Counted from the whole stretch's first letter, positions 11,932-61,901 are shown. The stretch is DNA of 63,675 bases, filler included, from Chrysochromulina tobinii (GCA_001275005.1; 7 parts of 7 records of this genome joined end to end with filler, not necessarily neighbours in it); one strand, 5' to 3'. Notes: a model not told the origin generated them from the letters alone. Numbers and translations are program-made.

Positions 11932-12283
11932 ATTTATTGTAACCCGAGGTCATCTCCTGTCTCTCGTTAGAGCTTAGACTTTTCCACAGCGAGCGAATTT
12001 GGCATGAATTGAAGGGATCCTGCGTATTAGTCGCACAAATAAGAGCCCACGCCAATGCACGAGACAGGACGAAGTAAATAGTAATCGGAAATCCAATATC
12101 CAATTGCGGAAATGCGAAATCGCTCCCTCGGTCAGTGTGTAGCCTGGATGTGTGGAAAGTGGAATGAAATTGCGACTTTGTGTGTGCAATATATCGCACG
12201 CACCTACGAACACGCGACGACGGCAAGTCTCGGTTACCGATTTCTCGTCAATAGTGTCGTGTGTCGTCTGCGAGATCATCATG

Positions 12284-24000: not shown

Positions 24001-27000
24001 CAGTCGAAGCAGTGCGCGTACGTCAACGTGTGCCGCTTCATTCAAGTGTACGACACGCCGCCCAAGATCATTCTGCAGGTGTACGTGGCGCTGCTGCGCA
24101 CCTTCCAGCCGGACGCGCGCACCCTCGTCAAGCAGGCGCTCGACATCCTCACGCCCGCGCTGCCCAAGCGGCTGCCCGCGGGCGACCACAAGTACCCGAC
24201 TTGGATCAAGTGGACCAAGAAGATCATCGTCGAGGAGGGACACTCGCTTCCACAACTCATCCACATCTTGCAACTCGTTGTGCGCCATCCCGCCCTCTTT
24301 TACTCCAGCTCTGCGCAGTTCGTGCCGCAGATGGTCAACTCCCTCAACCGGATCGGGCTCTCGCCCAACTGCTCCGTTGAGAACCGGCGGCTCGCCGTCG
24401 AGCTCGCGGCGCTCATCATCGCATGGGAGCACCAGCGCTGCTCGAACATCAAGCAGCCGCTGCCGGGGGCCGGCGCGCCCGACGCGGCAGCGGCACCAGC
24501 GGCTTCTGCGCCGCCTGCCGCGGCACCGGCGGCCGCTGCACCGCCCGCCGCTGCAGGCACGCCGCCGCCGGCCAATGCCGTGGTGCCCGCCGCAGCGCCG
24601 GCTGCAGCGACGATGCCGGTGGACGAAGAGTTCAAACCGTCGCCGGCCATCATCGAGGTGCTCATTAACTTCCTGATCCGCGTGGCACTGATCGCGGCCG
24701 ATGGCAAGGACCCCGCTTCCCACACGCTCTCGGAGCAGTGCATCGGTCTCCTCGACGCAGGGCTCGCGGTCTGGCAGGATGCCAACATCAAGCTCGCCCA
24801 CTTTGAGAAGCAGATCAGCTCGGCGCAGGATCAGCTCTCGGCGCTGCTGACTGGCATCAGCGTGCTGCGCATCATCCTTCTCAAGCAGCCCTCCTTCTTC
24901 CTGCACTCACTCGGCGCGCTGCAGACGTTGCTCCGGCCCGCTTTCGAGACCCACATCAACGATCCGCGCATGGTCGCTGCCCTTTCGGCCTTCATCACCA
25001 TTGCTGTGCCCGCGCTCGACACCGCTGCTACCGTCTTCGCTTCGCAGGGCAACATCGCAGCGCTGCGTCGGTCGGCTGGAAGCACCGTACCGCCCAAGGC
25101 TGACCTCGAGGCCGCTTTCAAGCGCCTGCTTGGCGCCGCCGACGTGACGACGGGCCTACTCAGCTGGCATGAGGTGGCACAGGCGTGCCGTCATGACGAG
25201 ACTCTGCGAGGGCTGCTCGGCCTCCCGAAGCAGCTCTCCTCGGCGCCGAAGACGGACGAGCCGAGCGTCGCGGGCGTCAAGCGCAGCGCCGACGGCAGCG
25301 CCGCCCCCACGCCCGAAGATCCGGCCGCCAAGCGAATCAAATTGGAGACCGGTGAGGTCGCACCGGGCGCTCCCGCGTCGGGCGCTGCACCGGGCGCTCG
25401 GGCACCGGCGGCCGTTGACGATGCGAGTGCCGAGCAGATGGCAATGCTAATCGTGAAGCTGGGGAGCGATGAGGCCAAGACGCTCAGCCTCGCCGACTTT
25501 TGCCGCCTCTTCGGTCCGCTGCTGCCGACCCCCGCCCTGCCCCCGGCTGCCACTGCAGGCGCGCCCACCCCACCCGTCGCGGACGTGCAGACGTTTGTGC
25601 GCTGGGTGAGCGACGTAGTGGGCGCAGGCCTGCGCAGCACGACCCGCGAGGTGGCACACGTGTCGGGCAACGCGCAGTTGCTCCTTGCGCTCTCCAAGAG
25701 GCGACCCGCCGTCCTAGGCGACCACCTTATGTCGCTGCGCGAGCTCATCGTACGGCTTGGCAAGGATCCGGCCATCGTGCGCGGCGGCAGCGGCCAGCCG
25801 CAGCCGGTGCAGCCGGTGCAGCCGGCGCAGCCGGCGCAGCCGGCGCAGCCGGCGCAGCCAGCGCAGCCGCAGCCGGCGGCGGCGGCCAACAACGTCGCCT
25901 CCGATGCGGACCTCGGCCTCAAGACACTTAAGTTAGGAGTTGAGTTGCTCGCGGCGTATGTGAGCATCACCCTCTCCAAGGACGAGACCGCCGACGCCGA
26001 GGCGCGCGCTCGGCTCAACGCGCCGCTGCATGCGCTCATCGACGCCAAGGCCGACCCCGAGCTGCTCGCCAAGGTGACGGCGCTCGTCACGCCCTGGCTG
26101 ACTGCACCGCTCTCGCCCACCTCGATGGACGTCAAGACTCGGGCGGCCTTCATTAGCCGGATGGCGTGCTATGAGCAGATCGCAAACGCGCCGCTGCAGG
26201 CCGCGTACCTGAACATCGTCAAGCAGATGTTCACCGACACGGCGCTCGCGCGGCGCGAGTTGCTCGACCGCATCGAGGCCGCCTTCATGTTTGGGCTGCG
26301 AGCGCGCGATGCGACGCTGCGCAACGCCTTCTTCGACATCTTCCACCGCTCGGTGGGGCGTACGGCCGGCCAGCGCATTTTCTTCCTCGTGCAGACGCAG
26401 GACGCGGAGTCGCTCGCTTCGACGGCTTGGCTACGCCATGCGCTCTCGCTGCTGCTCGCGACCTCCGACCTACGCGCGCCCTTCGGGCTGCCCGCGGCCG
26501 GGCTGCACCTGCCGCCGCTCCGGCTGCATGACCCCGGGTGCGCGAGCGCCGTGTCGGGCGGCGCGCCGAGCGCTCTCGCGAGTCTGCTCGCGCACGAGCG
26601 CGCCTTTTTGAGCGCGAGCGCGGCGCACGGCTCGACGGGCGAGCTGCTCTCGTCGATGGCCGAGCTGCTGCTCGATGACAAGGCGACGCCGCTCGTGTAC
26701 GACCTGTGGGTCAGCGTGCTGCCGCAGGTATGGCAGCAGCTTACGTCCTCTGAGCAGGAGAGCCTCGTCAAGCCGATCATCCAGCTGCTGAGCAAGGACG
26801 CGCCGCCTCGCCAGTCTGCGTCGCGCCCGAACACGGTCCAGGCATGGCTGCATGCCCTCTCGCGCTGTAAGCCGATGCCCAAGCTGCCTGCACCCATCCT
26901 CAAGTACCTCGCGCGCGCGTACGGCGCGTGGCACCTCGTGTGGCCGATGCTGCAGCACCAGGCGCTGCACTACCCGACGGAGCAGCAGTGGTACGACGCG

Positions 27001-28652
27001 CTCGGCGAGCTCGCCACGCAGCTGCACGATCGCGACCTGCACGCGGCGCTCTGGGCCAAGCGCTCGACCCACGACGAGTCGCGCCGCGCGCTTGCGCTCG
27101 AGCAGTACGGCGCGTGGCACGCGGCGCAGGCTGCGTACGTGGATTGCATGCATCGCTGGCAGAGCGGCGACGTGCAGCTGATCAACACGCCGCGGGCCGA
27201 GCTCGGGCTGTGGGAGCAGGGGCTCATCCGATGCGCCAAGAACCTCAACCAGTGGGAGCTGCTCACCGAGTTCGCCAAGTCCATGCCCAATGCGCAGCCC
27301 ACCCTGCTCATGGAGTGCTCGTGGAAGATTGGCGACTGGGAGCGTCTCAAGGACCTCTTCGCCAAGTACTCGCTGCCCGAGCAGCCACGCATCAAGATGC
27401 TCCAAACGTACGCGGCCATCCACGAGGGCAAGCTGCCCGACGCCGAGCAGCGGTGCAACGAGGGCATTCAGGCCGCGCTCCTTCAGTGGACGGCGCTCCC
27501 GTCGCTCGACGCGTCGACGCACACGCCGCTGCTCCAGATCTTCCAGCAGTTCCAGGAGCTGCAGGAGTCGGCGCAGATGCTGCTTGAGATCTCGAACGCG
27601 CAGCGCGCGCAATCGGCGCCCGACCTGTCCTCCATCCTCACCACGTGGCGCGAGCGGCTGCCGAACCGTTGGGAGGACCTGCCGGCATGGAACGACCTCG
27701 TCTCGTGGCGTAACCACATGTTCTCGCACATCAACAACGTGCTCACGCGCGTCGCCACCGACAACCCGCAGGTGAGCGCGGCCGCGATGCAGGAGCTCAT
27801 CTGGACCAACACGCGCTTCGCGCACGTGGCGCGACGCCAGTCGCTGCCCGAGGCCTGCGTCAACATCATCTCGAAGATCCAGTCGGTGCACTCGGGCATC
27901 CCCGCGGCCGACCTGAACGACGCGTTCGCCAAGCTGCGCGAGCAGGCGCGTGCGTGCCTGCAGCTGCCAAACCACACGCCGCAGGGCCTCGATCTCCTCA
28001 ATCGCACCGACATCCGTAACCTCTCGGCGGCTCAGCGCTCCGAGCTCTACCTGACCAAAGCTGAGTTGCTCCTCGCTGGGCCGGTTGGCCTTCAAAGCGA
28101 CCAGGACGGCGCCGACCTCGACGAGGTCTCGGCAGCGCTCGCCTCGTCCATTTTCATGAACCCCGCGCAGCCCAAGGCGTGGCTGCTCTGGGGCCACTGG
28201 TGCGACAAGCGCGCCAGGCGCGATGGCGGCTACGCGCCCACGCCGGCCAAGCCCAAGGCCGACGGTGCATCCGAGGGAATCAAGACCGATGAGGCGGCGG
28301 CCGCGGGCGCCTCGTGGGCGGAGCGCGCGCTCGCATGCTACATGCAGTCGGCGCTTCATCGCAGGGAGTCGTCCGCTTCGATGCTGCCACGTGCGCTCGA
28401 GCTGATGCGTGACGCGCCAGACGCGACATCCCGCGGGGCCCTTGCCAAGGTCTTTGGCGACCATTGCGACGGCGTGCCTCTGTGGGAGTGGTTACCCTGG
28501 CTGCCGCAGCTCCTGTGCCACCTGCCGAATGTGGAGGGCAAGCAGGTCCAACACGTGCTGCTGCGCGTGGCGCGCGCCTACCCGCAGGCCCTCTACTATC
28601 CGCTGCGCACCTACGTGACCGAGGGGCCGCAGACCGGCAGCGCGCCCGAGCC
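18032..28652 (+). CDS. TRRAP: TRRAP/Tra1 (PIKK-family SAGA/NuA4 scaffold), partial at both ends; intron 21812-22431
   Basis: SFKVLTECPLIVMLLFQ, AQVKTLSFL, RKDILVATRHIL, LCLTLPARLSSLLPYL, RKELIKFAW; FAT-domain WRERLPNRWEDLPAWNDLVSWR and YPQALYYPLR. A phase-0 GTACGC..GCAG intron joins the two ORFs; the frame is open to both contig edges. Confidence 0.95.
21881..21970 (+). ncRNA. Candidate intronic C/D-box snoRNA (18S guide)
   Basis: Terminal stem TGGCA/TGCCA, variant box C GGGACGA (21890), C' TGACGA (21937), box D CTGA (21958); GTCTCGTTCGT (21905-21915) is antisense to conserved 18S ACGAACGAGAC. Confidence 0.65.
22061..22157 (+). ncRNA. Candidate intronic C/D-box snoRNA, copy 1
   Basis: Stem CTTTC/GAAAG, box C-like GTGAAGA, box D-like CCGA; CACTGGATCATTCAATC is antisense to 18S GAUUGAAUGAUCCGGUG (one G:U); AACC-GAAA-GGTT tetraloop hairpin. 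Confidence 0.55.
22212..22308 (+). ncRNA. Candidate intronic C/D-box snoRNA, copy 2 (151-bp tandem duplicate)
   Basis: Identical to 22061-22157 at offset 151. Confidence 0.5.
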
Positions 28653-32163: not shown

Positions 32164-33077
32164 GGGAGACTGAGGGGAGGATTCACATGGGAGGGCGGAG
32201 AGGGGAACCGTGCCGGACAGTGCGCGTGAGGCATGGGCAAGCAGTGGCACGCGAGCAGTGGCACGCGAGGTGTACACCCAGACCAGAGTCCAGAGACAGC
32301 CTGAACGTGCGACGTAGGTGCGAGAGCGGAGAAGCAGAGAAGTAGGTGACAGAGCGAGATGTGAGCGAACGGAGGAGGTACGATGACGCCGTCCGCAATT
32401 GGTTGTCGGTGGATGGGGTTCCGGGCGCGCCGGTCGCATACGCACACTCCCCGGCGCCTCCCGCGCCCCGCGATCGCCCACCCACCGCCCCCCCGCCACC
32501 CCCATCGCCCATGGGGCCACCCCCCCTGCCGCGAGGAGAAAGCGAGTTGAAGAACAAAAAGAGAAGCCACAAGTTGGGATGACGGATATTCGGTAACCAA
32601 AAGCAATGCCAATGTGCGGTCTGAGAGAGTTATCAAAATCCCAGCAGCTTGCGTCGCGTCGTGCCCACGCCTATTGCGTATTGGGCGGGGGTGTTGGCGG
32701 TGGGGTCGGTGGCGGCGGCTGCGTCAGGGAGGTTGGCGCGGGTGGTGGGTGCGGGGGTGGTGGTGGCGGCGGGGGCGGTGCTGGCGGTGGGGGCGTTGGC
32801 GGCGGTGGCGGCGGCGGGGGCGGCGTGTGTGGTGGCGGTGGCGATGGCGGGGCCTATTGGCCCACGCGGCCGCGGCCAACGGGCGCCGGGGTTGCGTCGG
32901 GGCGAGCGGTGCCTTGACGCCTCCTGGTCCCGGACACTCGACCCACGAGCGCCGCTCGACTCGGTCGCCGCGGGTGTGGGGGGCGACTGTCTGACTGGCA
33001 AAGTCTTGACTTGACTTGACTTGAACTTGATTTGCCCGCTCGAGTTCACCCTCAGAAGTTCCTCCACATCTGAGGCT

Positions 33078-35465
33078 ATGGAGGGGGACTCGGAGGAGGA
33101 CTGGGTGGAGGTGGTGAAGGCAGAGGAGGCGATGGAGGAGGGCTGCGGCTCTTCGAGCGAGCTGGAGAGCGCGCTCAAGAACGCGAGCGCCAACAAGAGC
33201 GTGGATGCCACTTTGGTGCGCGAGGCGGTGCTCAAGCTGTCCAAGCTGGAAATGTCGCGCGGTGCAGCGGCAAGTGCTCCAGCAGTTGCCGAGGGTCCAT
33301 CATCCAATCCGGTGGGTGCTTCCATCGGACACCATGGTCTGGTACAGGGCAAGAACGCCAGCGGCAACTGGAACGAGGCGGGCGAGTCCCAGTACGATTG
33401 CCCTGCTGACTGTGACGAGTTGGTGGCTCGGCACGAGATGGAGCCCTGGGTGGAGGTGGCGATGCCGGACGACGCCGGCATCGAGTACAGCGCGCTCGCT
33501 GCGGACATCGCGGCCGATAACATGGCAGCTCACATCGCTGCCGTCGCGGACTCCGAGGAGAGAGAGCCGATGTCGACCGTGGGGATGTCCCTTCAGGAGG
33601 AGACGGATGCTATCCGACGACGCGGCAGCGATGGCGGTGGTGCTGCAAGCGATGCTGGGAGCTCAAGGGGTGGAAGGGGTCGTGGGAGCTCGACGGCGGG
33701 CTCGGAGGAGGCCTCGGATACAGGCGCGACCTCGCTGGCTCGCAAGGGCGGAGGAGGCGGCGAAGCAGGAGGCGTGCCAGCCAAAGAGCCCGAGTACGAC
33801 ACTGTGCAATATGCCGTCACAGGACCTGCGGTCGTGGAAGATGTTGCGATGAGCTTCGCGGTGCAAGTCTGGGCGATGATGGTTGCCAACGTGGCCTTGT
33901 TCAAGGACGCGCTTGATACGACGGAGAAGCGCTACGCGCATACCTTGGATAGGCTCGAGCGGGCCGTGACGGACTTCGAGGTGACCGTGCTCGTCACAGG
34001 TTGCATCGTTGAGCCCGCGACACAATGTATGCACTGGAATCGGAAGATCAAAGCTGTTCACCATGAAGTCTTCATCCCGCAACAGCTGTCCGACACTTAT
34101 CTCTTCGGAACAGTAATCATCCGGCCGATTCCATCCTCTCCACAGCGCCCCATTCTGTTTACGGCACCCTTCAAGATCTTCCGCAGAGCCGAGAGCATGC
34201 AGCCTCGCACCTCGCCGTATCCACATACCGCCTCGAGCGTGCTCCAGGGATCTGATGCGATCCTCCAGAGGCTCAATGAGATCCAGCACCAGCTCTGCAT
34301 CCAGCAGGAGCAGATTGCCACGGCCGTCTCCGCCGGCTTATCCGCAAGCGCCACTGCAGGTCGCGCATCGTGCGCCGCACACGACGCGGTCGCGGCCGCC
34401 CAGGCACTGCAGAGGAAGCTAGGGGTGCGTCCCGATCTCGTCGAGAAGGTGAAGCGGGCGAGCGTGCGCATTGGCCTCCTCGACCGCGCCAAGTGCCGGC
34501 TCCTCGAGCTCGGATCCGGCACCATCATCGACGCCGGTGCGGGTGCGCCGAGGAACCAGGTGCTCACCGTGGCCCACCTCTTCGTCGATCCAGTCGCCTG
34601 TACACAGGGTAACCCGCACTACCTCGAACCGATCTGGACCAAGTTCGGATATCCCACAGCCATCGACTGGACGTCCGACGTGGCGCCGCTGATCCTGGCG
34701 ATTGGGATGTGGGAGGCGGATGATCAGCCCTCACGATGGATGTGGTGGGCCGAGCTCGTCACCCCCCTCGCCACGCTGCAGGAAAAGTGCCAGAGTCCCC
34801 ATGCACCCCACAGCATGACGCACATGCTTGATCTGGCCGTGCTTCGCATCTGCGGCCGCCTCGAGCTCACGCCTGATGTCTTCCAAGGCTTCGGGATGGA
34901 CTACTCGGTCGTCGCGAAGCATCCAGCGATGGCCAGCCTCGCTGGGGCGAGCTCGCCGCTCCCTGCCGGGGTCCAGCTCGGAGACCCTGACGCGCTCCAG
35001 GTCAATGCAGACCTGATCACCGTCTTCGGATGGTTCTCACGGGTGGCTCGTCCCCCGACTGCCGCCCCTGCCGCACACGACGCCGGGATCGAATACGGCG
35101 TGCTCGCTGCGGACATCGCGGCAGATAACATGGCAGCTCACATCGCTGCCGCTGCGGACTCCGAGCTGCCTTCGGAAGTCACGCTTTTCGCGCCCCAAGC
35201 GCTCGCTCTCGTGGCCAAGAGTCACGGGCTGTTGCAGGTATCGGCCGTGCTGCACAGCGGAGGCAGCGGAGGCGCCGCAGTTGATTATCTTGGCCGCCTG
35301 GTGGCCGTGAGCAGGAGGTCGAACCTGCCGGCGCTGCCACCGAAGAAGAAGTGCATGGGCTACTTGCGCATGGTGAGCTGGCTGTTGCCTGAGCACGGTC
35401 TTGTCTTCAGCGAGTTGCCTCAGGCGGCTCGTGATGCGACCTCGCCGTATCCACATACCGCCTCG
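33078..35465 (+). CDS. Multidomain protein with a trypsin-like serine protease domain, 3'-partial
   Basis: Catalytic triad motifs GSGTII..VLTVAHLF, DLAVLRI, HSGGSGG..VD..GRLVAV, preceded by a coiled coil; frame open to the contig end. Confidence 0.75.
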
Positions 35466-35565: not shown

Positions 35566-38500
35566 GCGCGCGGGCCGGCACACTGAGAGTGGTCTCCACT
35601 GAAAGCGGAGTGCCGGGCCGCAGAGATGCGCGCTGCTGCCGAGAGGGGGCGAGGCGAGAGGCTGTGAAACAGCCGAAGAGCGCGGCACCCGTAGAGCTGG
35701 GGCCTTAGGGCTCGAGCTCGATGTCGCGATCGGCGTCGCGTGCAGCCTTGCCCAGGGCGCCGGCCGCGATTGAGGTTTGAAGGTGGGCCACCCATTCATC
35801 AGCGTCGAGCCGGGGAAGGTTGGCCGCGGTAGTGGAGTCGACGAGCTGGTCCATGGACGAGATGATCCAGGCGGTGCGCTCGATGTCGTTCATCCTCGCG
35901 TAGATGAGGAGCGCTTCCTCGCTCTTCCAGCGAAGGATGGCCATGATGCGCTCGGGGGGGCAGCCCGCGGCGTACAGCGCACAGGCAAGGTAGATGCGGA
36001 AGGAGTGCACGGAGAAGCACGCGCACTCCGCCTCGGTGAGTCCAGCCCCCTCGCGCAGCGCCTTGACGAAGAGGCGGTCCAGCAGGTCGTGATGCCACTC
36101 GACGCCCAGCGTCGGCCCGAAGAGCGGCGTGAGGGGGGCGGTTGCGGCAGTAAGGCCGGCCCGCAGCGCGGCCGTGGTGAGGGCCGCGAGCGAGCGACAC
36201 GCGTTGCGCGCGGCAACGGACGAGAATGGGAGCCACGACGGCTTGGAGCCGAAGAACTCGCCAAACGCATCGTTCTTGAGGGAACCGAACACAAGCCAGC
36301 AGCCGTCGCCCTCAGTGATGGGGAGGATCTCGGTGAGGGTGGGGAGAGCGGTGATGATCCCTCCCACGCGCCACTTCAAGCTCGCAAAGGTGAGGCGGCC
36401 CTTCTTGAAAGCGGTCGCTTTGTGCGCCTTCGAGACGTCTCCCTTGCGCATGCCGGTCTCGGCGAGCGTCTCCACCGTCGCCCGGAAGGCGACCAGCGAG
36501 TACGAGGTCCAGTCCCATGGGGCGCGCAGCATGGCCAAGATAAGGACGTTGGTGAGCGGATTCTTTCGCGAGGGTGCGAGGGAATCAGTGCCATGGAGCT
36601 CGACATACTGGCGCAGCATTCCTGTAACAACCTGAACGGCGATGGTGAACGGCGCCATCTTGTATCCGCGCTTCTTGTGCTCACGCGCCACCGCGTAGAG
36701 CTTGTTGAGGGCGTTCCGCGGGTTAGCCGCCGGATCCTTCTTGGATCTCGGCTGCATCCGTGCGTACATGTGGAGCAGCGCGAGCGCCGGTAGGATGAGC
36801 TCACGACGGTGACCTACCGGGTCGAGTCCCGTATTGGCCGCGACGTCCGTGCGCCACATCGGCGTCCCGAGTGCCGCGCACGCCTTGCGCCACGCCTCGA
36901 GATGATACTTGTCCTTCTCGTTCGTGGAGTCCGCGAAGGCGGACTCGAGGTGCTCGCGCATGACGTCAAGCAGTCCCGCAAGCTCTTCCTCGCGACCTGG
37001 TAGAAGAGCCATAGGCGAGTCGTCTTGAAGAAGAGCCGCCTCCCAGGTCGTCGGTGCACGAGCCGCAGGGGTGGCGGCTTGGACGGGTGCCGGCCAGCGT
37101 TGCTGCCGCGCCCCAGAGCGCATACCCACCGGCCGAAGCGCCGGTGCCAGCGACAGCTGAGGAGTCAGGCGCCCGGGAGGGCGCGTGAGCGGCGGTGGAG
37201 CTCCCGTGGTCGTCCGCAGCGGCGTGGGCACTGCCGTCCGCCAAGGCATGGGAGGCGTCAGGGGGGGCGGCCCGAGGTTGGGCTGCGATGCCGGCGGCCT
37301 GCTCGTCAAGAATGGCGGCGGTTTCGTGCGCGCGCCGTCACCTGCGACCGTCGATGAGAACTCGGCACCGATGCAGAGCTCGGTGTCGGTGAGCCCGTGC
37401 GAGGATGCCACCGCGGCGCCAGTGAGGAGGGCGGCCATGACGCCCCGCGCTGCCCGTGCGACACGTGCGGGCGCGGGCGCAATGCGAGGGCGCGCGCGTG
37501 CGCCGGCGCGAGCGAGAAGGGGCACCGATGCTGCGCGGGTAGTCCGCGGCGGCGAGGGCGGCGGCACCACATGGGCAGCCGGGTGCGCGATGGTCGCGGC
37601 AGGCGGCGGGCGCGCCGATCTGTCAAGCGCAAGCATCTCGAGCTCGCGCTGCTCAGTGGAGAGGGCATCAAAGTAGTCAGCGACGCGTTCCATATATGCA
37701 AGGAAAGCGGCGGGAACGTCACGCTTCACCGGCGCGAGGCGGAGGTGGCGCATAACTTCACGCAGCTCGTCATCACGCCCGCGGCTGCCCATGTCACAGA
37801 TCGGATTCCCGACACCGTACTCGTGCGAGCAGTAGCACCGGTTCAGGACAGCCTTGACCTCCAGAAGCTCGAGCATCTCGTCGTGCATGAAGCGCATGAG
37901 GCGGCTCTCGCGAACCGCCGACGCCAGGATTGTCGGGACGACGAGTGAGTCGCCAGGGATGGCGATGCCAACTGCACCAGCAAGATCGGCTGCGAACGTG
38001 ATGAGGCCGAATGGCCCTTGGCCGGCAAACTCAAGAGCGACAATGGGCCATTGCGCGTAGCGCGTGCCCAGCAGCGGCAGGGTGGCGTAGTAGCCGTAGA
38101 GGTTGGTGGTGATGCCCGGGCAGCCCGTGCCCTTGAGCGCCGCGTCCGAGTGGATGCGGTGCATCACTTGGCCGGTCGGTGGGCGGCTGTGGAAGACCGA
38201 GCCCAGCATCGAGGAGCCCGTCCGTGACTCGAGAGCCCCAGTCCAGGCGACGAAGGCACGCGATGAGCGGCGCGTAAGCGGAACCCGAAGTCCGTCATCG
38301 AGTTTGGCACCCCCCCGGCGCTCGACGAGCCGATCGCCCTGTGCGGCCATCGCGCGGACGGCCAGGGCGCCCTGCTCAAGAAGCGCCTGCTGGTGCAGGA
38401 AGGGGTCGGATACGGCGGAGAGCAGTGGGCGCAGCCCGGCCAGCCACACGCGATGGCCGAGGATGTGCGTGCAATTCCCGTCCGCACGCGGCGCCGTGTC

Positions 38501-41500
38501 GAGACCATCAGAGGTTGGGCGAGCTGCGATGGCCGCCGTGGCTGGATGGTGCCAGATAGAGCCTTGCTCCGGATGAGTTGCCGACAGGTGCTCGAGGCCG
38601 TAGATGACGTGGGCGTCGGCCGCCGCTGCTATCGCCGTAAGGGCGAAGTGAGCAAGTGCCGTTTCATCGCGGACAGACCGAGCGAAGGCGCGCGGGATCG
38701 GCGTGATCCCACCAGGTTCCGCAGGCGAACGCAGCCGCGGGATATGGTGGGAGGAATAGGTGCGGGAGGGAGGGGCAGCGAACACGATGGCGTACACGCG
38801 CGCCTCGATCTCGCCCAGCAGCTGGTGCTGCACCTCTCGGCGCCGTAGGTCGAACTGATCCCCATTGGCAATGTCGTAGTTGACCACCGTAAAGCCGAGC
38901 GTCTCTCCGAGGGCAAGGAGGTCGAGCGTGCCATGCTGTGCGCGACCACCAAAAAGGAAGAGGGCTCTGGTACGCCCCATGGGCGCGCGCACAGGAGCCC
39001 CTACCGCCTCAGCCGCAGTGCGGATGCGATGCAGAGTGTCGATGCCGTCGTAGAAATTGTACATCAGCTGCTTGGGCAGGACCAGAGTGAAGACAAAGTG
39101 GTGCAGGAGCCCACCGAGCTCTCGCATCTCGCGGACAGTGAGCGTGCCGGCCTGTGCGCCGCGAAGAGCCGTGAGTGCTTTGAGCACTTTGGCTGGTGAG
39201 AGGTAGGAGAGGAGCGCGGTAGCAAGGTACTGCCCCCCAACCCACTCGCCTTGAACTCCGACGCAGCGTTTGCACGGGTCGCTGCGCCGGAGGTTAGCGG
39301 CGGTACACTCGCGCCCCCAGTGCTCCGTCGCGTCGCAGAGGAGGACGGGCCCGATTGTGAAGATCCGCGGGTCATCCGTATAGCCGAAGGCGATGAGGAG
39401 GTACCCTTGCACATGCGCGCCCACTTCGAGCTCGGCGGCGACCTGTGCGCGCACGGCGAGCCACCCGGCGAAGGCGGGGCAATCGGCCGCCCACTTGTCA
39501 TATGTCGCGAGGTGATCACGGTGGAAATCATCCTGAAACTTGTTGCAATACTCGGTGACATAGCCTTGGGCGTACCGCGACGAGGGCACCGTGCCCATGC
39601 TCACACAACCCGCCTGGATGAGAGTAAGTGCGACATCGGGCGTATCAGCGAGAAGGCACGCGATGAGACGCGTGATGAGCTCTTGGGTGATCGCGGACGG
39701 GTCGAGCAGCATCAACTGCATGTAGATGCGCTGTCGGAAGCTCACAGCGAGTTGATGAAAGAATTTCGCAAAGTCGTCACCAAAGCTGAGCACGTCGAGG
39801 CCAAGCATCTCCGCCGGCGGCGTGAGGACGACGATCGCGAGGGTGAGCATAAAGAAGAAGGGCTTGAGCTCCGGCGGTAGGATAGGTGCGCCAAATCCAC
39901 TCCCCGGGGTCGGCCCAAATGGGCGGTACGGTGGGCGAGCGCTGATCGCCTGTACGCTGAATCGGGCAGGGTCGCGCCTCACGTCGCCTGCGGAAGCGAG
40001 CTCGCGCGCACGGAGCGCTCTATCGAGTTGTGAGCCGATGCTCGCGTTGAGGGAGAGAACAGGGGCTGCCGTCCCGAAGGTCGTCATGGCGCCAGCGGGG
40101 GGTGCCGTGTCGTTGTTGACCATGCGCCACGATGTCAGGTTGCTCTTCACGACACACCCCACGCACGAGAATCTGCCTGGTGCAGTGAGCAGGTTGAGCC
40201 GACCCTGTGCCAAAGAGGCCGCCGAGCGTGCCGCAAACCATCCTGCGTCGATCATTTCGCGCAGCGTCTCATGTACAGAAGCGAAGCCGTCGGCAATCGA
40301 GGACATGGGCGGGATCATAACCAGCTGCCCGCCGAGTTGCGTGAAGAACTCGACCCCGTGGGTGGTGCAGGCGTCGCGCAGTGCGGCGTCCGGTGAGCCC
40401 TTGAGGAGGTTGGCGGCATAGGTGGGGTCGAGGCTGAAATTGGGCGCGCGAGAGAGGTCCGCGAGCGCAATGCGCTCGCCGTCGTGGCAGAGCACATGGC
40501 CGGCGGCGATGAGCGCCGCTGCCCACGGGTAGCACGAATTCTCATCAAGGTTGCACGCGAACAGCTTCGGCTTTGGGCAGCCCTGGGCACGTCCCGTCTT
40601 GGCTGCATGCAGCAGCCACCGCCATGTAGCTTGTTGGCATTCAAGAGCGGCTGCATAGGCACCTGGTAGCAGGACGGTGTCCCAGTCGAGTGCATCTGAC
40701 GGGACGCAGCCTGAGGGCGGCGGGGGCGGCAGGGGCGGCAGCGGTGACGATGCAACCGATGGCACGTATGGGAACGGGACACGATGCAGGCGGGTGTCGC
40801 TCGCCGAGTAGCACTGGCTACGCAGCGTCGCGTTGATGGCATTGAGCTGCAGTGGCTTACACACCGCCAGCCATCCGGCGCACTCAGCGCGGTCGACGGG
40901 GGAGCGTGTGGTGTCGGCAATGCGCCGTTCGTATTCATGGCGCAGCGCGCGCATGCTCGCCTGAGCTTTCTCCACGACCGTGTCCCATGGGACTGGGTGA
41001 GCACGCGCCTCGACGAGCACTTGCTGGGGCTCGAGTGCCAGCTCGGGCTGAGCCCCCACACGTACGCCGTCAGGAAGAGCAGCCGTGGGCTGGCGGAAGG
41101 CACACGCTCGCGCAAGCGCAAGAGCGGCCACACGAGCGACCGTCGCGTCGCCGTGGAGAGCGGCGAGCGTCGCCCACGCGATATTGTTCGAGGATTGAGC
41201 CTGTGTCAAGGGAGTGCGGGTCCATTCATCCGTGACGTCGCGTGCGGTCATCTCCCAGTCCATCGGCGGCGGGTCGGTGATGAGGGCGCCCGAAACAACC
41301 AAGCCCAGCGTCTCGATCTCGAAATAGTAGAAGGCGTGCACGTCCGTCCGGCCGGGGAAGAGCGCCGCCGCCCATCTCGCCGCGTCCGCGTAGTCAGTCT
41401 CACGCGAGATAAAGGATCGGCGCTTGCCAAAATAAGCCTCGCCACACTCGTCGAGCGGTAGACCAATCCGAGGTGCCGTGCCGTCAAAGATGAGGGGCAC

Positions 41501-41743
41501 GAACACATGCGCCGATGCAGCCTTGGCCGAGGCAGTGAGCTGGACCGTTGGGACTTGGGTCGGGTCGAGCCCGGGCGGCTTGTCCGCCCACGACGCAGTT
41601 TTCGTCGTGGAGCCCTGCAGTGCGATCGAAGACGGCTGTGCGCCCACCCCGAGCCTGCTGCCTTCATCCTTGACGGTCACCATCGAGGGATCCCGCACGT
41701 GGTTTAGACAAGAGATAACCGCAGTGTTCTCAAGTGTATCCAC
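35566..41743 (-). mobile_element. DIRS-like tyrosine-recombinase retrotransposon (termini not captured)
   Basis: The whole contig is one ORF with RT, RNase H and tyrosine recombinase in DIRS order. Confidence 0.88.
35705..41743 (-). CDS. Polyprotein: RT - C5-MTase-like insert - RNase H - tyrosine recombinase
   Basis: RT: DDFAKFFHQL, CVSMGTVPSS, YTDD (~39371-39382). RNase H: IHSDAA, ALEF, GDS, NPICDMGSR. YR: ETGMRKGD, LKND, HSFR, ILRWKS, LIYARM. Insert: LFLFGG..YDI..FDL..AAPPSRTYS. Confidence 0.9.
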   Translation of the reverse strand: MDTLENTAVISCLNHVRDPSMVTVKDEGSRLGVGAQPSSIALQGSTTKTASWADKPPGLDPTQVPTVQLTASAKAASAHVFVPLIFDGTAPRIGLPLDECGEAYFGKRRSFISRETDYADAARWAAALFPGRTDVHAFYYFEIETLGLVVSGALITDPPPMDWEMTARDVTDEWTRTPLTQAQSSNNIAWATLAALHGDATVARVAALALARACAFRQPTAALPDGVRVGAQPELALEPQQVLVEARAHPVPWDTVVEKAQASMRALRHEYERRIADTTRSPVDRAECAGWLAVCKPLQLNAINATLRSQCYSASDTRLHRVPFPYVPSVASSPLPPLPPPPPSGCVPSDALDWDTVLLPGAYAAALECQQATWRWLLHAAKTGRAQGCPKPKLFACNLDENSCYPWAAALIAAGHVLCHDGERIALADLSRAPNFSLDPTYAANLLKGSPDAALRDACTTHGVEFFTQLGGQLVMIPPMSSIADGFASVHETLREMIDAGWFAARSAASLAQGRLNLLTAPGRFSCVGCVVKSNLTSWRMVNNDTAPPAGAMTTFGTAAPVLSLNASIGSQLDRALRARELASAGDVRRDPARFSVQAISARPPYRPFGPTPGSGFGAPILPPELKPFFFMLTLAIVVLTPPAEMLGLDVLSFGDDFAKFFHQLAVSFRQRIYMQLMLLDPSAITQELITRLIACLLADTPDVALTLIQAGCVSMGTVPSSRYAQGYVTEYCNKFQDDFHRDHLATYDKWAADCPAFAGWLAVRAQVAAELEVGAHVQGYLLIAFGYTDDPRIFTIGPVLLCDATEHWGRECTAANLRRSDPCKRCVGVQGEWVGGQYLATALLSYLSPAKVLKALTALRGAQAGTLTVREMRELGGLLHHFVFTLVLPKQLMYNFYDGIDTLHRIRTAAEAVGAPVRAPMGRTRALFLFGGRAQHGTLDLLALGETLGFTVVNYDIANGDQFDLRRREVQHQLLGEIEARVYAIVFAAPPSRTYSSHHIPRLRSPAEPGGITPIPRAFARSVRDETALAHFALTAIAAAADAHVIYGLEHLSATHPEQGSIWHHPATAAIAARPTSDGLDTAPRADGNCTHILGHRVWLAGLRPLLSAVSDPFLHQQALLEQGALAVRAMAAQGDRLVERRGGAKLDDGLRVPLTRRSSRAFVAWTGALESRTGSSMLGSVFHSRPPTGQVMHRIHSDAALKGTGCPGITTNLYGYYATLPLLGTRYAQWPIVALEFAGQGPFGLITFAADLAGAVGIAIPGDSLVVPTILASAVRESRLMRFMHDEMLELLEVKAVLNRCYCSHEYGVGNPICDMGSRGRDDELREVMRHLRLAPVKRDVPAAFLAYMERVADYFDALSTEQRELEMLALDRSARPPPAATIAHPAAHVVPPPSPPRTTRAASVPLLARAGARARPRIAPAPARVARAARGVMAALLTGAAVASSHGLTDTELCIGAEFSSTVAGDGARTKPPPFLTSRPPASQPNLGPPPLTPPMPWRTAVPTPLRTTTGAPPPLTRPPGRLTPQLSLAPALRPVGMRSGARQQRWPAPVQAATPAARAPTTWEAALLQDDSPMALLPGREEELAGLLDVMREHLESAFADSTNEKDKYHLEAWRKACAALGTPMWRTDVAANTGLDPVGHRRELILPALALLHMYARMQPRSKKDPAANPRNALNKLYAVAREHKKRGYKMAPFTIAVQVVTGMLRQYVELHGTDSLAPSRKNPLTNVLILAMLRAPWDWTSYSLVAFRATVETLAETGMRKGDVSKAHKATAFKKGRLTFASLKWRVGGIITALPTLTEILPITEGDGCWLVFGSLKNDAFGEFFGSKPSWLPFSSVAARNACRSLAALTTAALRAGLTAATAPLTPLFGPTLGVEWHHDLLDRLFVKALREGAGLTEAECACFSVHSFRIYLACALYAAGCPPERIMAILRWKSEEALLIYARMNDIERTAWIISSMDQLVDSTTAANLPRLDADEWVAHLQTSIAAGALGKAARDADRDIELEP

Positions 41744-43293: not shown

Positions 43294-44871
43294 TCAGATG
43301 ACCTTGAGCTGGATGAGCCCGCCGGCAATGTCGTCGAGGAGCTGCACATCAGCGGCCTTGTACGGCCGGTCGGTCGAGCGCCTCGCCTCATCGAGCGTCG
43401 TGGCGGCGAGAGTGGGCTTGAAGGCCGCGCGCATGTCCTCGGGCGTCCCTGCATGAGCCTCAAAGTGCGAGGGCACGATCACCTTGAAGTCCCAGTTGGT
43501 GACGATGTCGTTCACCCAGCGGCTCAGCTCCGGCTTCACACGATCCGACCGGTAGATGAGCGAGTCGGTCACGGGAGCGACGATCCAGCGACCTTTGAGT
43601 GCCGCAAATGAAGGCGCCGGTGTCACGAGAGAGTCTGGACTCGGGCCGAAGAAGAGGGAGAGGAGTACGTTGCGCTCCCAGCCTCGCTGAACCACCTCGG
43701 CATCCGTGCCCTGGCGCATCCCGTCCGCCCACAGCTCATCCACAGTCTGAGCGGCGGTGCCGCGCCAGTTGACGGCACCTGCTCCCTTGAGGATGAGGTT
43801 CCCGAGAGAGTTGGTGTCACGTGCATTGTCGCCGATGGCACGCAGGTTACCCTCATCGTAAATCTTGGTGGGCGCGCCGGGCACGTAGATGAGCGCATCC
43901 GTCAGCGCGAGCGTCTTCGTGTCCTTGTGCAGCACCGCCGCCTCATTGGCCGCGTACCCTAGGCCGAGGCGCCGTGATGGGCGTAGTAGCTTCACTTCGA
44001 ACTCGTCTGTCAGGTCAGGCGCGTTCGCGTACGCTGCGGAGCCGGCGGCGGTGTCGGTGAGGTCGCCGCCGCCCGTGCCTTTTGTGTCGATGCCCAGCAG
44101 CGGCGCCGGCAGGTCGACCGGAAAGGACCACTGGTCCGGCACAGCCCACACCTTAGCCTCGGGGAAGCGCCTGGCGAACGGCCCGACGAACACCTTGTGC
44201 TCGTACGGGGTGGCGCCGAGGAGGATGTGGGCGACGCCTTTGCTGTCGAGCGCCTTGAGCTGCGCGAGGAACTCGTCCGTGGGTGCCACAGGGTTGTACA
44301 CGAGCAGGTGGTTGTCACGCATGCGGAAAACGGTACAGCGCACGTTGGCTGAGATGCCCGACAGTCGGATCTCCTGCTCAAACGAGTAGACGCGCCCCTT
44401 GACGAGCTCGCTCTCGACGGTCTTGCGCTCCGTGAATGGGCCAAGTGGGAAGGGGAAGCCGGTGAACAGAAGGTACTTTTGGCTAGGCGGCTTGGGAGCA
44501 GCGGGTGCGTCTGCGGCCGCGAGGCTCATTGTCGTGGGCAGCGCGCCGGCTGCGGCGGGAGGCTCGCCGCGCCGCTGCGGCGCCAAGGCCACCATCGCGG
44601 GCGGCTCGGGGGCAGCCATCATTGGAGCAGGTGGGAGCATGCTGCTCACCACCAGCGCGAGCGTCAACAGCGTGCGCACCAAGGTAGGAGGCGCCGCGCT
44701 GCTGCTGCTGCTGCCTCCGCTGGTCGTCGCCGTCGCCTTGCCAAAAGTAGGACCCTGCAGCCGCGCGACGGGTGCGGGCGACCTGCACGACATGAAAGTG
44801 CTCTTGCATGCAGCTATTTGAGAGGGCACTAACGACGGCAGTGCCGGCACTGAGAGCCCAGCTGCGTGCAT
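43294..44871 (-). CDS. DUF4336-family (metallo-beta-lactamase-like fold) algal/cyanobacterial protein
   Basis: PLGPFTERKT, LLVYNPVAPT, EHKVFVGPFARRFPEAKVW..PDQWSFP, WDFKVIVPSHF; long N-terminal presequence-like region. Confidence 0.8.
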   Translation of the reverse strand: MHAAGLSVPALPSLVPSQIAACKSTFMSCRSPAPVARLQGPTFGKATATTSGGSSSSSAAPPTLVRTLLTLALVVSSMLPPAPMMAAPEPPAMVALAPQRRGEPPAAAGALPTTMSLAAADAPAAPKPPSQKYLLFTGFPFPLGPFTERKTVESELVKGRVYSFEQEIRLSGISANVRCTVFRMRDNHLLVYNPVAPTDEFLAQLKALDSKGVAHILLGATPYEHKVFVGPFARRFPEAKVWAVPDQWSFPVDLPAPLLGIDTKGTGGGDLTDTAAGSAAYANAPDLTDEFEVKLLRPSRRLGLGYAANEAAVLHKDTKTLALTDALIYVPGAPTKIYDEGNLRAIGDNARDTNSLGNLILKGAGAVNWRGTAAQTVDELWADGMRQGTDAEVVQRGWERNVLLSLFFGPSPDSLVTPAPSFAALKGRWIVAPVTDSLIYRSDRVKPELSRWVNDIVTNWDFKVIVPSHFEAHAGTPEDMRAAFKPTLAATTLDEARRSTDRPYKAADVQLLDDIAGGLIQLKVI

Positions 44872-44975
44872 GAAATACAGCCTAATGCAATCGGAGATCA
44901 GTCAAGTCAAGGAAATTTCGAGCGGCGGGATTCCCCACAACCAGACGGTAAAAAATCTACGGCGTCCAAGTGGGC

Positions 44976-47804
44976 TCACCCGACCTGCACGTAAGCCACG
45001 TCCACCTCCGCTCCGGCGCGCACGAGCACGTCGATCCAGGCGAGCTGTCCGTCCCGTAGCGCGTCGCCGGGGCCCTTGACCTCGACGAATCGCGCCGCGC
45101 CGCGCGGGGCAGAGGGGCTAGGGGGTGCGAGGAGCAGCAGGTCGGGGGCGCCGTGTTGGGACCCCACGTAGTCGAGCGCGAGCGTGCGACAGATAGTGCT
45201 CACGACGGCGCCCCCGAGGGCTTCGAGCGCGTGCGCGGTGAGCGCTGTGTCGAGCGCCCCCCACTGGACGCCGATGGCGGCCTCGCCGTAGTGCTCCTTG
45301 TATGCGCGAGCCCAGCGCTCGACCGCTTCGCCGCGCTCGATGGCCTCAAGGGTCGCTTCAATGGCGTGCACTCGACGGCGGTAAAAGGCGCCCCCGCCCT
45401 CCAAAAGGTCCAGCGGCGCGTCGGCCATGGCGCCCGCGACGGCGCCAGGCCCGTGCGTCGGTGCAAACAGGCAATCCCATAGCAGCAGAGCGAAGGTGGA
45501 CAGGAAGAGTCCGTTCTCGAGGTGCACGCCACGCGTCCACTGCACGCCGCCGCCGCCGCCGCCGGTGCCGCCGTCGCCGTCGCCACCGCCGCGCAGGTAC
45601 CACTCCATGGCAAAGTCCTCAACGCCCACGGCAGCGCCCCTCCCACCCTCCCATCCAGTGCGTCGTCCGGCGCCGCCCTCCACCTCATCCCGCACGCTCG
45701 CGGCCAGACGCATCTCGCGCCCCGAGATGCGCACCTCGCGCGCAGCTCGCAGCTCAGGCAGCTTCGGCTTCTTCCAGCGGCGGGGCGCGACCGCGAGCTT
45801 CTGGAGCATCCGACGGACAGCGACCATCTGCGCTCGGCTGAGCTCGAAGGTATCTCGGCTGAGCTCGAAGGTAGCTCGGCTGAGCTCGAAGTGGTCGTCG
45901 TGGCTCTCTGCGGTCGCATCGGCAGCCGGTGCTGCAGCCGGCGGCATGGGGCCCGTCATCTCGACACAATCCGCGGCGCGTAGCCGACCGTCGGTCGCAT
46001 GGGCGGCTTCGCACAATCGGAGCGCTGCAAGCTTGGAGCCGTCGCTGTTCAGGTCACGCACCAGCTGCATAAAGGCCCCCGCTCGCACCGCGCACGGGAG
46101 CACGTCGCACCCAAGCAACGAGCGCAGTCGAGCGACGGAGTCGGGCTTGCGTCCGTCACGCCGCAGCTGCGCACATCCGGCAAGCACCGCACGCGCGAGG
46201 ACAGCGGCCGCAAACGAGGCACTCCCACCTCCCATCTCCCACACCGTGCCGGGCGCCGCGAGGTGCATCAGCCGCGCGTGCGCCTCGTCGGCCGCGCTCA
46301 ACACGACGCTCGCCGTTGCGGATGTCCCTAGACCCGCCTCCATGCGGTCGGTGAGCGCCAGGCAAGCCAGGAGATGCTCGAGGTCGTCGCGGCATCGCAG
46401 GCGGCGCACCGCCGCCGACGCCAAAGGGGCCGCCGACGGCAGCGCCGCCGACGCGTGTGCAGGCGCCGTGGCGAGCGCCGCGGCCCCTCCGAATCGAGTG
46501 TGGGTGGTGAGGCCCGCATGGCCCCTGAGCATGCAAGCTGCCTCTTCTGGGCGGTAGCCGCAATTGACGAACCCGACGACGCTGAGCCGATGCAGCGCGC
46601 TCGCCACCTCTGGGCGCAGCCGCACGCACGGACCGAGCGCCTGCAGCAGAGGCGACAGGTCGGGCTTCCGCCGTCGGCCGAGAGCTGCCACCAACTGCTG
46701 CGCTAGCACGCTGTTGAGCGAGGGGCCGGGCTCCGCACCGGTAACGGCACCGGCGGCGCCCGCGGCACCCGCAGCGCCGTCGCGGGCGCTGCTCGACGGT
46801 GGCACGCCGGACGACGAGCCGATGGCAAGCGCGGCGGCCGCGGGCGGGCCTAGGCCCGTCTGCGTGTGCAACTCGCGTAGCACGCGCACGGGGAGAGTCG
46901 CTAGAGGTGTGAGAAGTGACGGGAGCGAGGGCGGCGGTGAGGGCGGCGGCGAGCTTCGCAACACCTCGAGGAGCTCGTAGGCCTCGCAGTCCTCGAGTGC
47001 GGATGCCCACGCCGCCGCGCACACCGCGGACGGAGCGGCGCCACCCGATGCGGCGCCCGATGCTGCCAGTGGAGCGGGGAGCGTCTGCAACCGCACCCAC
47101 ACCCCAGGCGAAGCCAGCGCGTGTGCAGTCAGGGCGGCGCTCTGTCGAGCGCTCGCGAGGTGCTGTGCGATCATCGTCTCGGTGGCCGTGAGCAGCGGCG
47201 AGGGCGGTGCCGGCGCCTCGGCAGGTGCGGTAAGGCAGCCCTCGGGCGTCGCGAGCATGAGCAGCACGTGCCGGCACAGCAGCGCAAGAGCGCCGCCTAC
47301 GCCGCCCTCACCCGCGTCGCCGCCCTCTCTCCGCCCGCCGCCGTTTGCACTGCTGCCGCTGCTGCCTCGCATCGACACCCAGCTGTTGCGTCGGCGCAGG
47401 TCGCAGCAGAGCGCGGTGCCACCACCTGGGTAGCACACATCATGCAGCCGGTTGGTGTACGCCGGCATGTAAGCCGCGAAGGTCAATTCTTGCGAGGCGA
47501 CCACAGTTACGGCAGGCGGCGCAGGCGCGATACCAAATGCGCGAGCGAGTGGTGTGCTCAGCAGCGCGGGAGAGGTGCTCGACGGCGGTGGTGGCGGCGT
47601 CACAGTGAGCGTCACAGCTGTCGGCCGTGCGGACGGTGCTTCGGCTGGGGCTCCAGTCATCGGAGTCGTCAGGCTCGGCGCCGCCGCAGAGGAGACTTCG
47701 GCTGCGTCCAAATGGCTGTCCAGGTGCTCATTAATCTTGAAAGCGGGCACGCAGGCGGAGCACATCGGGCACTGCACGAAGCGCGACATCGCCTCCTTTC
47801 CCAA
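44976..47804 (-). CDS. FAN1: Fanconi-associated nuclease 1-like
   Basis: N-terminal UBZ finger CPMC..INEHLD; C-terminal VRR_NUC: HLENG, GAPDL, FVEVKGPGDAL..GQLAWI. Confidence 0.85.
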   Translation of the reverse strand: MGKEAMSRFVQCPMCSACVPAFKINEHLDSHLDAAEVSSAAAPSLTTPMTGAPAEAPSARPTAVTLTVTPPPPPSSTSPALLSTPLARAFGIAPAPPAVTVVASQELTFAAYMPAYTNRLHDVCYPGGGTALCCDLRRRNSWVSMRGSSGSSANGGGRREGGDAGEGGVGGALALLCRHVLLMLATPEGCLTAPAEAPAPPSPLLTATETMIAQHLASARQSAALTAHALASPGVWVRLQTLPAPLAASGAASGGAAPSAVCAAAWASALEDCEAYELLEVLRSSPPPSPPPSLPSLLTPLATLPVRVLRELHTQTGLGPPAAAALAIGSSSGVPPSSSARDGAAGAAGAAGAVTGAEPGPSLNSVLAQQLVAALGRRRKPDLSPLLQALGPCVRLRPEVASALHRLSVVGFVNCGYRPEEAACMLRGHAGLTTHTRFGGAAALATAPAHASAALPSAAPLASAAVRRLRCRDDLEHLLACLALTDRMEAGLGTSATASVVLSAADEAHARLMHLAAPGTVWEMGGGSASFAAAVLARAVLAGCAQLRRDGRKPDSVARLRSLLGCDVLPCAVRAGAFMQLVRDLNSDGSKLAALRLCEAAHATDGRLRAADCVEMTGPMPPAAAPAADATAESHDDHFELSRATFELSRDTFELSRAQMVAVRRMLQKLAVAPRRWKKPKLPELRAAREVRISGREMRLAASVRDEVEGGAGRRTGWEGGRGAAVGVEDFAMEWYLRGGGDGDGGTGGGGGGVQWTRGVHLENGLFLSTFALLLWDCLFAPTHGPGAVAGAMADAPLDLLEGGGAFYRRRVHAIEATLEAIERGEAVERWARAYKEHYGEAAIGVQWGALDTALTAHALEALGGAVVSTICRTLALDYVGSQHGAPDLLLLAPPSPSAPRGAARFVEVKGPGDALRDGQLAWIDVLVRAGAEVDVAYVQVG

Positions 47805-48198
47805 GTGTGAACGTTCACACGTTAACGTTCACGTTAAATTGCCAAGAAAGAACAGTGATCAAAGAAAGGGGTTTCGATCCGAATTCGAGTTGTCCTCGCC
47901 GCCCGCACGGAAGTGACACCTCAAAGTTATATCTTTTGTTTTTCAGCGCCCTCGGCCTCGCTGGTCGGACGCTGCTCGCTGACGCTTAACCAACGCGAGC
48001 AAACGTCCGATCCCACAGGACCCAGCACCTGATGCGGCTTCAAAAGTTCAAATTGGATGCGGCTATATTATATTAATCCAGTCGACTCACGGCTGTTGAG
48101 TGTTGTCCCCGGCGCGTGCTGTCCTCCTGTACATCTACTCGCGCTACATAGTACGTCGTAGTACGCTATTTCCGGGATTGCGTTCACCTCGCGTTCAT

Positions 48199-61700: not shown

Positions 61701-61901
61701 ACTCGCGCTCGTCGAAGCACGTGTAGAACATCAGCGACGGACGCTCCTTGGGCGGCGGCGTGGTTCCATCTGTAGGGTACCGCGCGGCTTGCGCGCTCGC
61801 GGGCGACGCCAGCGTGTTGTTGTTGATGGTGTTGAGCATGATCCTCTCGTACTCATCCTCGAGCTTCTCGAGGCCGGCGTGCGTCTCGCGTGTCAGGGGT
61901 A
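58714..61901 (-). CDS. dabA-dabB: DabA (DUF2309) - DabB (NuoL/ND5-like) fusion, putative inorganic carbon transporter; 5'-partial
   Basis: DabA: CFDERECSFRRYIE, ETFGVPGFF, HGSRTVNNPFDAAYNCGACGG, HDTT, RPELG, SYDP, INLEY, GDL..GLP.Q, LVYNDWV. Then a multi-TM region with LIKSSQFP..SMEGVSPNSALGYAG. Frame open to the contig edge. Confidence 0.92.

Follow-up and report, generated by a model that had tools for sequence, protein, structure and literature searches.

A probably inactive C5-methyltransferase-like domain in the polyprotein of a recently mobile haptophyte retrotransposon

Introduction

The closest described counterparts of the retrotransposon analysed here, which lies in a 63,675-nucleotide stretch of joined contigs from Chrysochromulina tobinii (hereafter the window), are the SymbioDIRS-Dnmt3 elements of a dinoflagellate (de Mendoza et al. 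2018, PMC5890265). These elements encode Dnmt3-clade domains that are detectable with the Pfam profile PF00145 and have conserved catalytic residues. Their methylase is under purifying selection resembling that on the reverse transcriptase (RT) and is active in yeast; its role is called unclear, and methylation of complementary DNA (cDNA) in cis has been proposed (PMC5890265). Retrotransposon DNMT3s are given for streptophytes and dinoflagellates only (PMC12344493). DAM modules have moved repeatedly between retrotransposon lineages, leaving discordant RT and methylase trees (bioRxiv 10.64898/2026.05.21.726589). Ngaro/PAT/VIPER-like elements encode RT, RNase H and a tyrosine recombinase (YR) between split repeats (A1...B1-A2-B2) that are near-identical at insertion, and their assignment to the Ngaro-like or PAT-like subgroup is set by RT/RNase H phylogeny (PMC6681497).

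The family described here bears on the question of why DNA methyltransferases are captured by retrotransposons again and again. A preliminary description of the window had proposed that a C5-DNA-methyltransferase-like domain, with Ser in place of the catalytic Cys, interrupts a retrotransposon polyprotein between RT and RNase H. Our analysis leads us to an account that we regard as probable, with some reserve: a C5-type domain entered the RT thumb/connection region long ago, is dead throughout the subfamily of the window copy, and persists as a folded structural vestige.

Results

Position and identity of the inserted domain

The element occupies one piece of the window (35566-41743, 6,178 bases), one of several contigs joined by N spacers. 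Almost the entire piece is taken up by a single uninterrupted minus-strand open reading frame (ORF) of 2,012 codons (35705..41743), whose 5′ end is open at the contig edge and which corresponds to the 3′ two-thirds of a 2,988-amino-acid (aa) polyprotein. It is 97.5% identical to residues 973-2988 of the full-length form, P0003 (2,988 aa), in which the insert is identical to the window's. The 90% cluster of P0003 has 56 members, and two of the 15 listed carry the label Chrysochromulina tobinii or C. parva.

Within this ORF, an in-frame insertion of 253 aa, linkers included (38285..39043, minus strand, as are all element features below), sits between the thumb motif YNFYDG and VPLT and contains a degenerate C5-DNA-methyltransferase-like Rossmann domain (38339..38971). 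An RT-like region runs up to the insertion point (39044..40130; WRMVNN, DDFAKFFHQ, SMGTVPSS, YTDD at 39385-39368, thumb LGGLLHHF), and an RNase-H-like region follows (37781..38155; HSDAA, ALEF, GDSL, NPICDMGSR), the C-terminal part of which matches the RNase H profile of relatives (E 1.7e-5). Profile searches of Pfam, PHROG and the PDB returned no matches for the window's RT or RNase H; their identity, which we consider likely, is suggested by motif order and by strong purifying selection.

The insertion measures 253-257 aa across the window subfamily and 280-281 aa at the same site in P0030, P0031 and P0033, which keep the Cys. Between YxDD and the RNase H Asp lie 411-451 aa in the insertion group (six proteins), compared with 186-216 aa in 13 relatives in which this methylase stands upstream of the RT. 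This spacing bears out the position first described, and the insert likely lies within the RT thumb/connection loop, before RNase H. A retrotransposon polyprotein can evidently accommodate a folded domain of 250-280 aa at this site. An AlphaFold2 (AF2) model of the RT-insert-RNase H fragment, made from 10 sequences, had a predicted local distance difference test score (pLDDT) of 48 with the insert alone folded, and Foldseek on this model was uninformative.

A HMMER scan of 1.84 billion proteins recovered 73 relatives of the insert at E<=1e-3. One of these, P0089, failed to align and was dropped, so that the counts below use 72 relatives, many of them fragments. Cys occupies the position of the window's Ser in 67 of the 72, with ENP or EHP at the expected spacing after it. 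The insertion-group profile aligns with that of the relatives with an N-terminal methylase over 240 columns (probability 100, E 2.4e-39). Modelled by AF2 from the family alignment, the insert adopts a Rossmann fold with a pLDDT of 90. Foldseek against the PDB placed DNMT1/MET1 in the top nine positions (E 1.4e-3 to 3.4e-3, none <=1e-3), and the same model also matched viral cytosine methyltransferases (E 1-3e-4). A VIA search was headed by DNMT3A (Z 10.5; root-mean-square deviation 3.8, 183 aligned) and DNMT3B (Z 10.3), with short-chain dehydrogenases (SDRs) tied at Z 10.1 and 10.0. Because of this tie, structure alone indicates a Rossmann domain that best resembles a C5-methyltransferase, and it is the family motifs that settle the C5 identity.

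Sequence searches with the insert found nothing in Pfam, PHROG, NCBIfam or the PDB, nor did a word-based protein search, and the PF00145 and RT profiles matched none of the 72 relatives at E 0.01. Of the 46 alignment members, 18 matched the phage profile phrog_757 ('DNA methyltransferase'; best E 2.5e-10) along its positions 11-163 of 247; no match came from the window insert or from P0024, P0028, P0030 and P0033, the relatives with the same insertion site that were tested. Named neighbours in the ESM Atlas, which we treat as leads only, carry PF00145 (scores 0.85-0.86). The lack of a PF00145 match in the insert and all 72 relatives, the derivation of the model from the family alignment and the SDR tie would each suit a Rossmann domain of another origin, such as a short-chain dehydrogenase. 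That origin is nevertheless very improbable, given the PC and ENP motifs at the right spacing in relatives, the phrog_757 matches, the DNMT1/MET1 and viral methyltransferase hits and the ESM Atlas neighbours. The Rossmann model, the motif-bearing relatives and the DNMT structural matches uphold the C5-methyltransferase ancestry originally proposed. The viral contigs searched held no relatives of the insert or of P0028, and tblastn with relatives as queries found nothing in phages or plasmids; a viral origin of the module is a lead only. In P0057, P0065 and P0079, which carry the methylase upstream of the RT, a DUF4326 domain stands ahead of the methylase.

Loss of catalytic residues across the subfamily

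Motif numbers below serve as labels. All of the named motifs fall in one minus-strand frame at the places first given, and their likeness to the methyltransferase family exceeds chance. The motif I-like RALFLFGG (38945..38968; family consensus LxLF[SA]G) is kept, as are, in close copies, the acidic residues of the motif II/III-like NYD and FDL (38840..38884; VNYDI at 38884-38870, FDL from 38854). The motif IV-like segment IVFAAPPSRTYS (38788-38753) encodes Ser (TCC, 38765..38767) where the catalytic Cys would stand. The motif VI-like YGLEHL (38585..38602), where same-insertion relatives have EHP and the wider family mostly ENP, precedes an 11-aa deletion; SIWHH lies at 38560-38546. The motif VIII region (38456..38509) is degenerate, having lost the family's FxQC...QKxT and, in the window lineage, a further 4 aa. 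The motif X remnant SAVSDPF (38399..38419; AAAYYP in the family) follows a deletion of ~25-30 aa that took the CxC..H segment.

These losses are shared by the whole subfamily. Among the close proteins that cover the Cys site, several of them near-identical, none of the 13 has Cys, the residue being Ala in seven, Thr in five and Ser in one, and PPC is accordingly intact in none. All seven loci agree (TCC at three, ACC at two, GCC at two), and covering contigs of four of four DNA runs have a Thr base there among the variants listed. Every sibling of the window copy has the 11-aa deletion after motif VI, no motif VIII, and the ~25-30-aa deletion before an eroded motif X. The family patterns QC, KxT and YP occur in none of 14 close proteins, compared with 36, 40 and 31 of the 72 relatives; a count for CxC/H was left unused because this pattern matched close copies by chance. 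The motif VI Glu is kept in the subfamily as EHL (EHP in same-site relatives) rather than ENP. By comparison, P0028-P0033 share the insertion site and keep the Cys (PLC in four, PRC and NPC in one each), and where covered they retain EHP/EQP, QC..QKYT, the CxC..H segment and YP.

From C5-methyltransferase structures, we take the lost motif VIII, CxC..H segment and motif X to be the parts expected to contact DNA and to close the S-adenosylmethionine (SAM) pocket, and by the established chemistry of these enzymes a Cys-less domain cannot form the covalent C6 adduct. The insert is thus predicted from its sequence, and likely, to be catalytically dead across the whole window subfamily, which agrees with the pseudo-enzyme status suggested at the outset. 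The element thus likely spreads with its DNA left unmethylated by this domain.

The TCC codon is, as had been pointed out, one base from TGC, and damaged copies of the family exist; both would fit a recent lesion confined to one decaying copy of a methylase that is otherwise active. This explanation is scarcely credible, since close siblings all lack Cys, three other losses are common to all of them and the window ORF is uninterrupted. The remark on TGC is literally true but misleading: because the nearest copies have Thr (ACC) and the deeper, earliest-branching ones Ala (GCC), Ser is most simply the latest state, derived from Thr, and the closeness to TGC is incidental. The suggestion of decaying cargo in this copy likewise finds no support, as the loss extends to 13 of 13 proteins and seven of seven loci and one Ser-bearing copy is intact and recently inserted (see below). 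The insert could instead still be an enzyme, one that methylates a different acceptor by attacking directly, with no need of a catalytic Cys. The SAM-side motifs and Rossmann fold are kept, and structure searches separate the insert poorly from other Rossmann enzymes. We nonetheless find this very improbable: the residue at the nucleophile position varies among Ala, Thr and Ser, motif X is eroded, selection is relaxed, and the sequence shows no catalytic motif of N4/N6 type.

Structure and recent mobility of the element

A whole copy, L001, consists of repeat A (2069-2329), the ORF, repeat B (11569-11779), a second A (11780-12040) and a second B (12055-12265). The A repeats are 261 nt and the B repeats 211 nt long, with 100% identity within each pair; the ORF has 2,988 codons, zero stops and Ser at the Cys position. 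In run X16, one contig joins both L001 flanks across the element with no duplication of the target, an empty-site allele that makes the L001 insertion site polymorphic. As L001 is intact, with identical terminal repeats and an empty-site allele, this Ser-bearing copy moved recently. L003, L004/L005 and contigs of two further runs have different flanks. Frameshifts or deletions are found in the family copies P0004 and L003-L005 and in contigs of runs X1 and X3. The window copy is a mosaic that resembles L001 through the insert and L006 (99.8%) downstream, reflecting either recombination or chimeric assembly. Repeat A of L001 starts with TTAGGG (2069-2074), a telomere-like hexamer. GAGAG closes the left flank of L003; its similarity to GAGAC, with which the element itself ends, may point to a target preference of the recombinase.

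The tyrosine recombinase core (35885..36460; R in ETGMRKGD, HSFR, W, Y) was recognized from its R-H-R-W-Y motifs and the sole Pfam match of the window ORF, to PF00589 (Phage_integrase; E 3.6e-5, 24.1 bits, under the curated cut-off of 27.1), and the phrog_1 integrase profile matches P0024 (E 1.2e-4) and P0033 (E 7e-9). Features of the order DIRS are therefore found in the recombinase match, the split direct repeats and the insertion without target-site duplication: this is a YR retrotransposon with split direct repeats that has recently been mobile in a haptophyte. The window element, P0003, P0013, P0024, P0030 and P0031 each have one ORF, with the recombinase not in a separate ORF.

Contigs from RNA runs fall in patches along the element in four of four runs, which does not by itself show transcription. 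The observed-to-expected CpG ratio is 1.09 in the element and 1.04 and 1.18 in the flanks, with no depletion; DNA of the Cys-keeping relatives is absent from this comparison, which is thus uninformative on methylation. The ~1,500 aa before the RT (P0003 1-1500; a gag-like part and a pre-RT block) have no Pfam match; purifying selection acts on them, and P0030/P0031 have them in conserved form.

Relaxed selection on a trapped domain

The ratio of nonsynonymous to synonymous polymorphism (pN/pS) was estimated from three haplotypes (L006 excluded), two of them damaged, in copies that are mosaic and with boundaries chosen after inspection, circumstances that weaken the case for a vestige; it was 0.25 in the insert core (confidence interval 0.15-0.39), or 0.29 with transition correction. 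The corresponding values were 0.46-0.51 in the insert tail, 0.05-0.06 in the RT, 0.07-0.08 in the recombinase, about 0.07 in the RNase-H-like region (on 6 changes) and 0.49-0.52 in a Pro/Ala/Arg-rich linker (36950..37700, approximate limits) that served as an in-frame control. Core and RT differ (bootstrap P<0.001), and the core is under relaxed purifying selection, at ~4-5 times the rate of the RT and recombinase and about half that of the linker. The ratio of methylase to RT divergence is 2.3-7.0 in three Cys-less pairs, compared with 0.8-1.6 in Cys-keeping pairs within the group; a short-range control on six members of a Cys-keeping cluster gave 0.6-2.5. The L006 match at 2404-3120 runs opposite to both flanks, with the switch falling exactly at the limits of the query, and is probably a retrieval artefact.

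A vestige could arise as follows. The ancestral domain would have methylated new cDNA in cis, tethered between polymerase and RNase H, and this methylation would have become dispensable in the window subfamily. With RNase H and the recombinase encoded further along the same frame, any stop or frameshift in the insert would kill the element, leaving the domain trapped in frame and obliged to stay folded. What would be tolerated are substitutions and in-frame deletions after which the fold is still compact and its two ends remain near each other. With only fold-preserving changes allowed, the active-site and substrate-side parts would erode and the Rossmann core would stay.

Several observations weigh against this account. 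From P0003 to P0024, the SAM-side residues (FGG, D and DL) persist, together with the Glu of motif VI and the Arg-rich stretch that follows motif IV, and the core is more tightly constrained than the linker (bootstrap P 0.02-0.03); residual function would yield the same pattern of kept residues and constraint. A pure vestige might allow clean removal of the domain in frame, but no copy of that kind was found. Moreover, five of the six same-site relatives (in P0028-P0032, which keep the Cys) have Leu or Arg for the Pro before the Cys, alongside the family KxT in motif VIII, and these domains may be atypical enzymes whose activity is predicted only.

In the main rival account, the constraint could instead mark a repurposed, non-catalytic pseudo-enzyme that binds SAM, a host protein or an RNA/DNA hybrid through a surface kept by selection; it might, in the way of DNMT3L, act as a decoy for the methylation machinery of the host. 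The core pN/pS of 0.25-0.29, under that of the linker, would fit, as would the confident fold (pLDDT 90) and the retention of motifs I-III, the motif VI Glu and LRSPxEPxGIxPIPRAFAR in copies whose inserts differ by as much as 23%. Against it stand the 2-7 fold rise in rate relative to the RT after Cys loss, the drift of the Cys site among Ala, Thr and Ser, and the loss of motif VIII, CxC..H and motif X, the parts expected to touch DNA. We regard repurposing as possible but doubtful. For the DNA-binding or decoy role raised in the preliminary description we found no positive evidence, and the lost parts include predicted DNA contacts.

Origin of the insertion

The insertion group forms one side of a branch both in the RT-RNase H tree (support 100/100, with a long-branch warning) and in the methylase tree (100), a pattern most simply read as a single old insertion. 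Identity between architectures is 26-35% for the methylase core and 15-18% for RT-RNase H. Profile-profile alignments of the RT between element groups were nonsignificant except for the RNase H tail, and we therefore do not trust the deep branches of the RT tree. Records labelled Chrysochromulina also hold other elements of the same methylase family. The presence of this family upstream of very different RTs makes transfer between elements likelier than fresh capture from a host, and suggests that the methylase module moved between distant element lineages. The independent capture at an unusual position first envisaged holds only in part: the insertion at this site looks like a single old event, and fresh capture is the less likely source. 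The position may also have a precedent, since the order RT-DNMT-RNase H may already be on record for Symbiodinium elements.

Other features of the window

Other contigs of the window bear eukaryotic genes. These include a Tra1/TRRAP gene, a eukaryotic marker, in two long ORFs with Tra1_central, Tra1_ring and FAT (18032-28650, plus strand), and a cpn60/TCP-1 chaperonin (50419-51984, plus). A DUF4336 protein (43297-44901, minus) and a VRR-NUC (FAN1-like) protein (44979-47828, minus) are also encoded. One minus-strand ORF (58717-61899) combines DabA (PF10070, E 7.5e-129) with a Proton_antipo_M membrane domain (DabB-like) into a fused DAB-type inorganic carbon pump; in an otherwise eukaryote-looking set, it could come from a bacterial contig or by transfer. 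Several ORFs of 500-1,100 codons have no Pfam match (6945-10349, minus; 3913-6261, plus; 33015-35465, plus; and others), part of which may be shadows of GC-rich genes.

Discussion

Elements of the same architecture with and without the catalytic Cys, the latter still inserting, offer a natural control on the role of retrotransposon methylases, and suggest that methylase activity is dispensable for spread, at least in this host. Haptophytes also join the known range of YR elements that carry a methylase, here one of a family overlooked by PF00145 searches. Should the domain be no more than a vestige, its value is that of a good evolutionary case study rather than of a new mechanism. In the open-access literature we found neither a haptophyte YR element with a C5-methylase nor a Cys-less retrotransposon DNMT.

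DNMT3L and similar Cys-less DNMT paralogues have the C5-methyltransferase fold and have lost the catalytic motifs, and DNMT3L is a host cofactor of demonstrated function. The insert resembles DNMT3L in its predicted fold and its lost catalytic motifs. A more adventurous proposal, which we think rather unlikely, is that a Pfam-invisible, phage-type module hopped among at least three distant algal YR lineages and in one of them became a needed non-catalytic accessory inside the RT, binding SAM or nucleic acid or acting as a silencing decoy, as a transposon-made counterpart of DNMT3L. Short phage methyltransferases of phrog_757 are the best profile match of Cys-keeping relatives and not of the window insert.

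The split-direct-repeat plan is that of Ngaro/PAT/VIPER elements, a likeness drawn from repeats and domains and not from RT/RNase H phylogeny (PMC6681497); unlike them, the present element has a single ORF and an internal methylase insertion. As in DAM-carrying DIRS and long terminal repeat (LTR) elements and in EpiLTRs, a methyltransferase module appears to have moved between lineages, but theirs is an adenine methyltransferase (DAM) or a DNMT4-sister domain in LTR elements (bioRxiv 10.64898/2026.05.21.726589). The main text of that preprint makes no mention of Chrysochromulina, Ngaro or 'inactive'. The nearest comparison is with SymbioDIRS-Dnmt3, likewise a YR retrotransposon in which A-coding-B-A-B repeats go together with a C5-methyltransferase encoded in the RT/RNase H ORF (PMC5890265). 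Those elements have a separate recombinase ORF (PMC5890265), unlike the single 2,988-aa ORF of this haptophyte-labelled element. As further differences, in the present element PF00145 is unmatched, the nearest profile is a phage methylase family, the Cys is lost and selection is relaxed. From its sequence, the element would work like SymbioDIRS-Dnmt3 with the methylase activity lost, yet it falls outside that family as defined, having a single ORF, no PF00145 match and no catalytic Cys.

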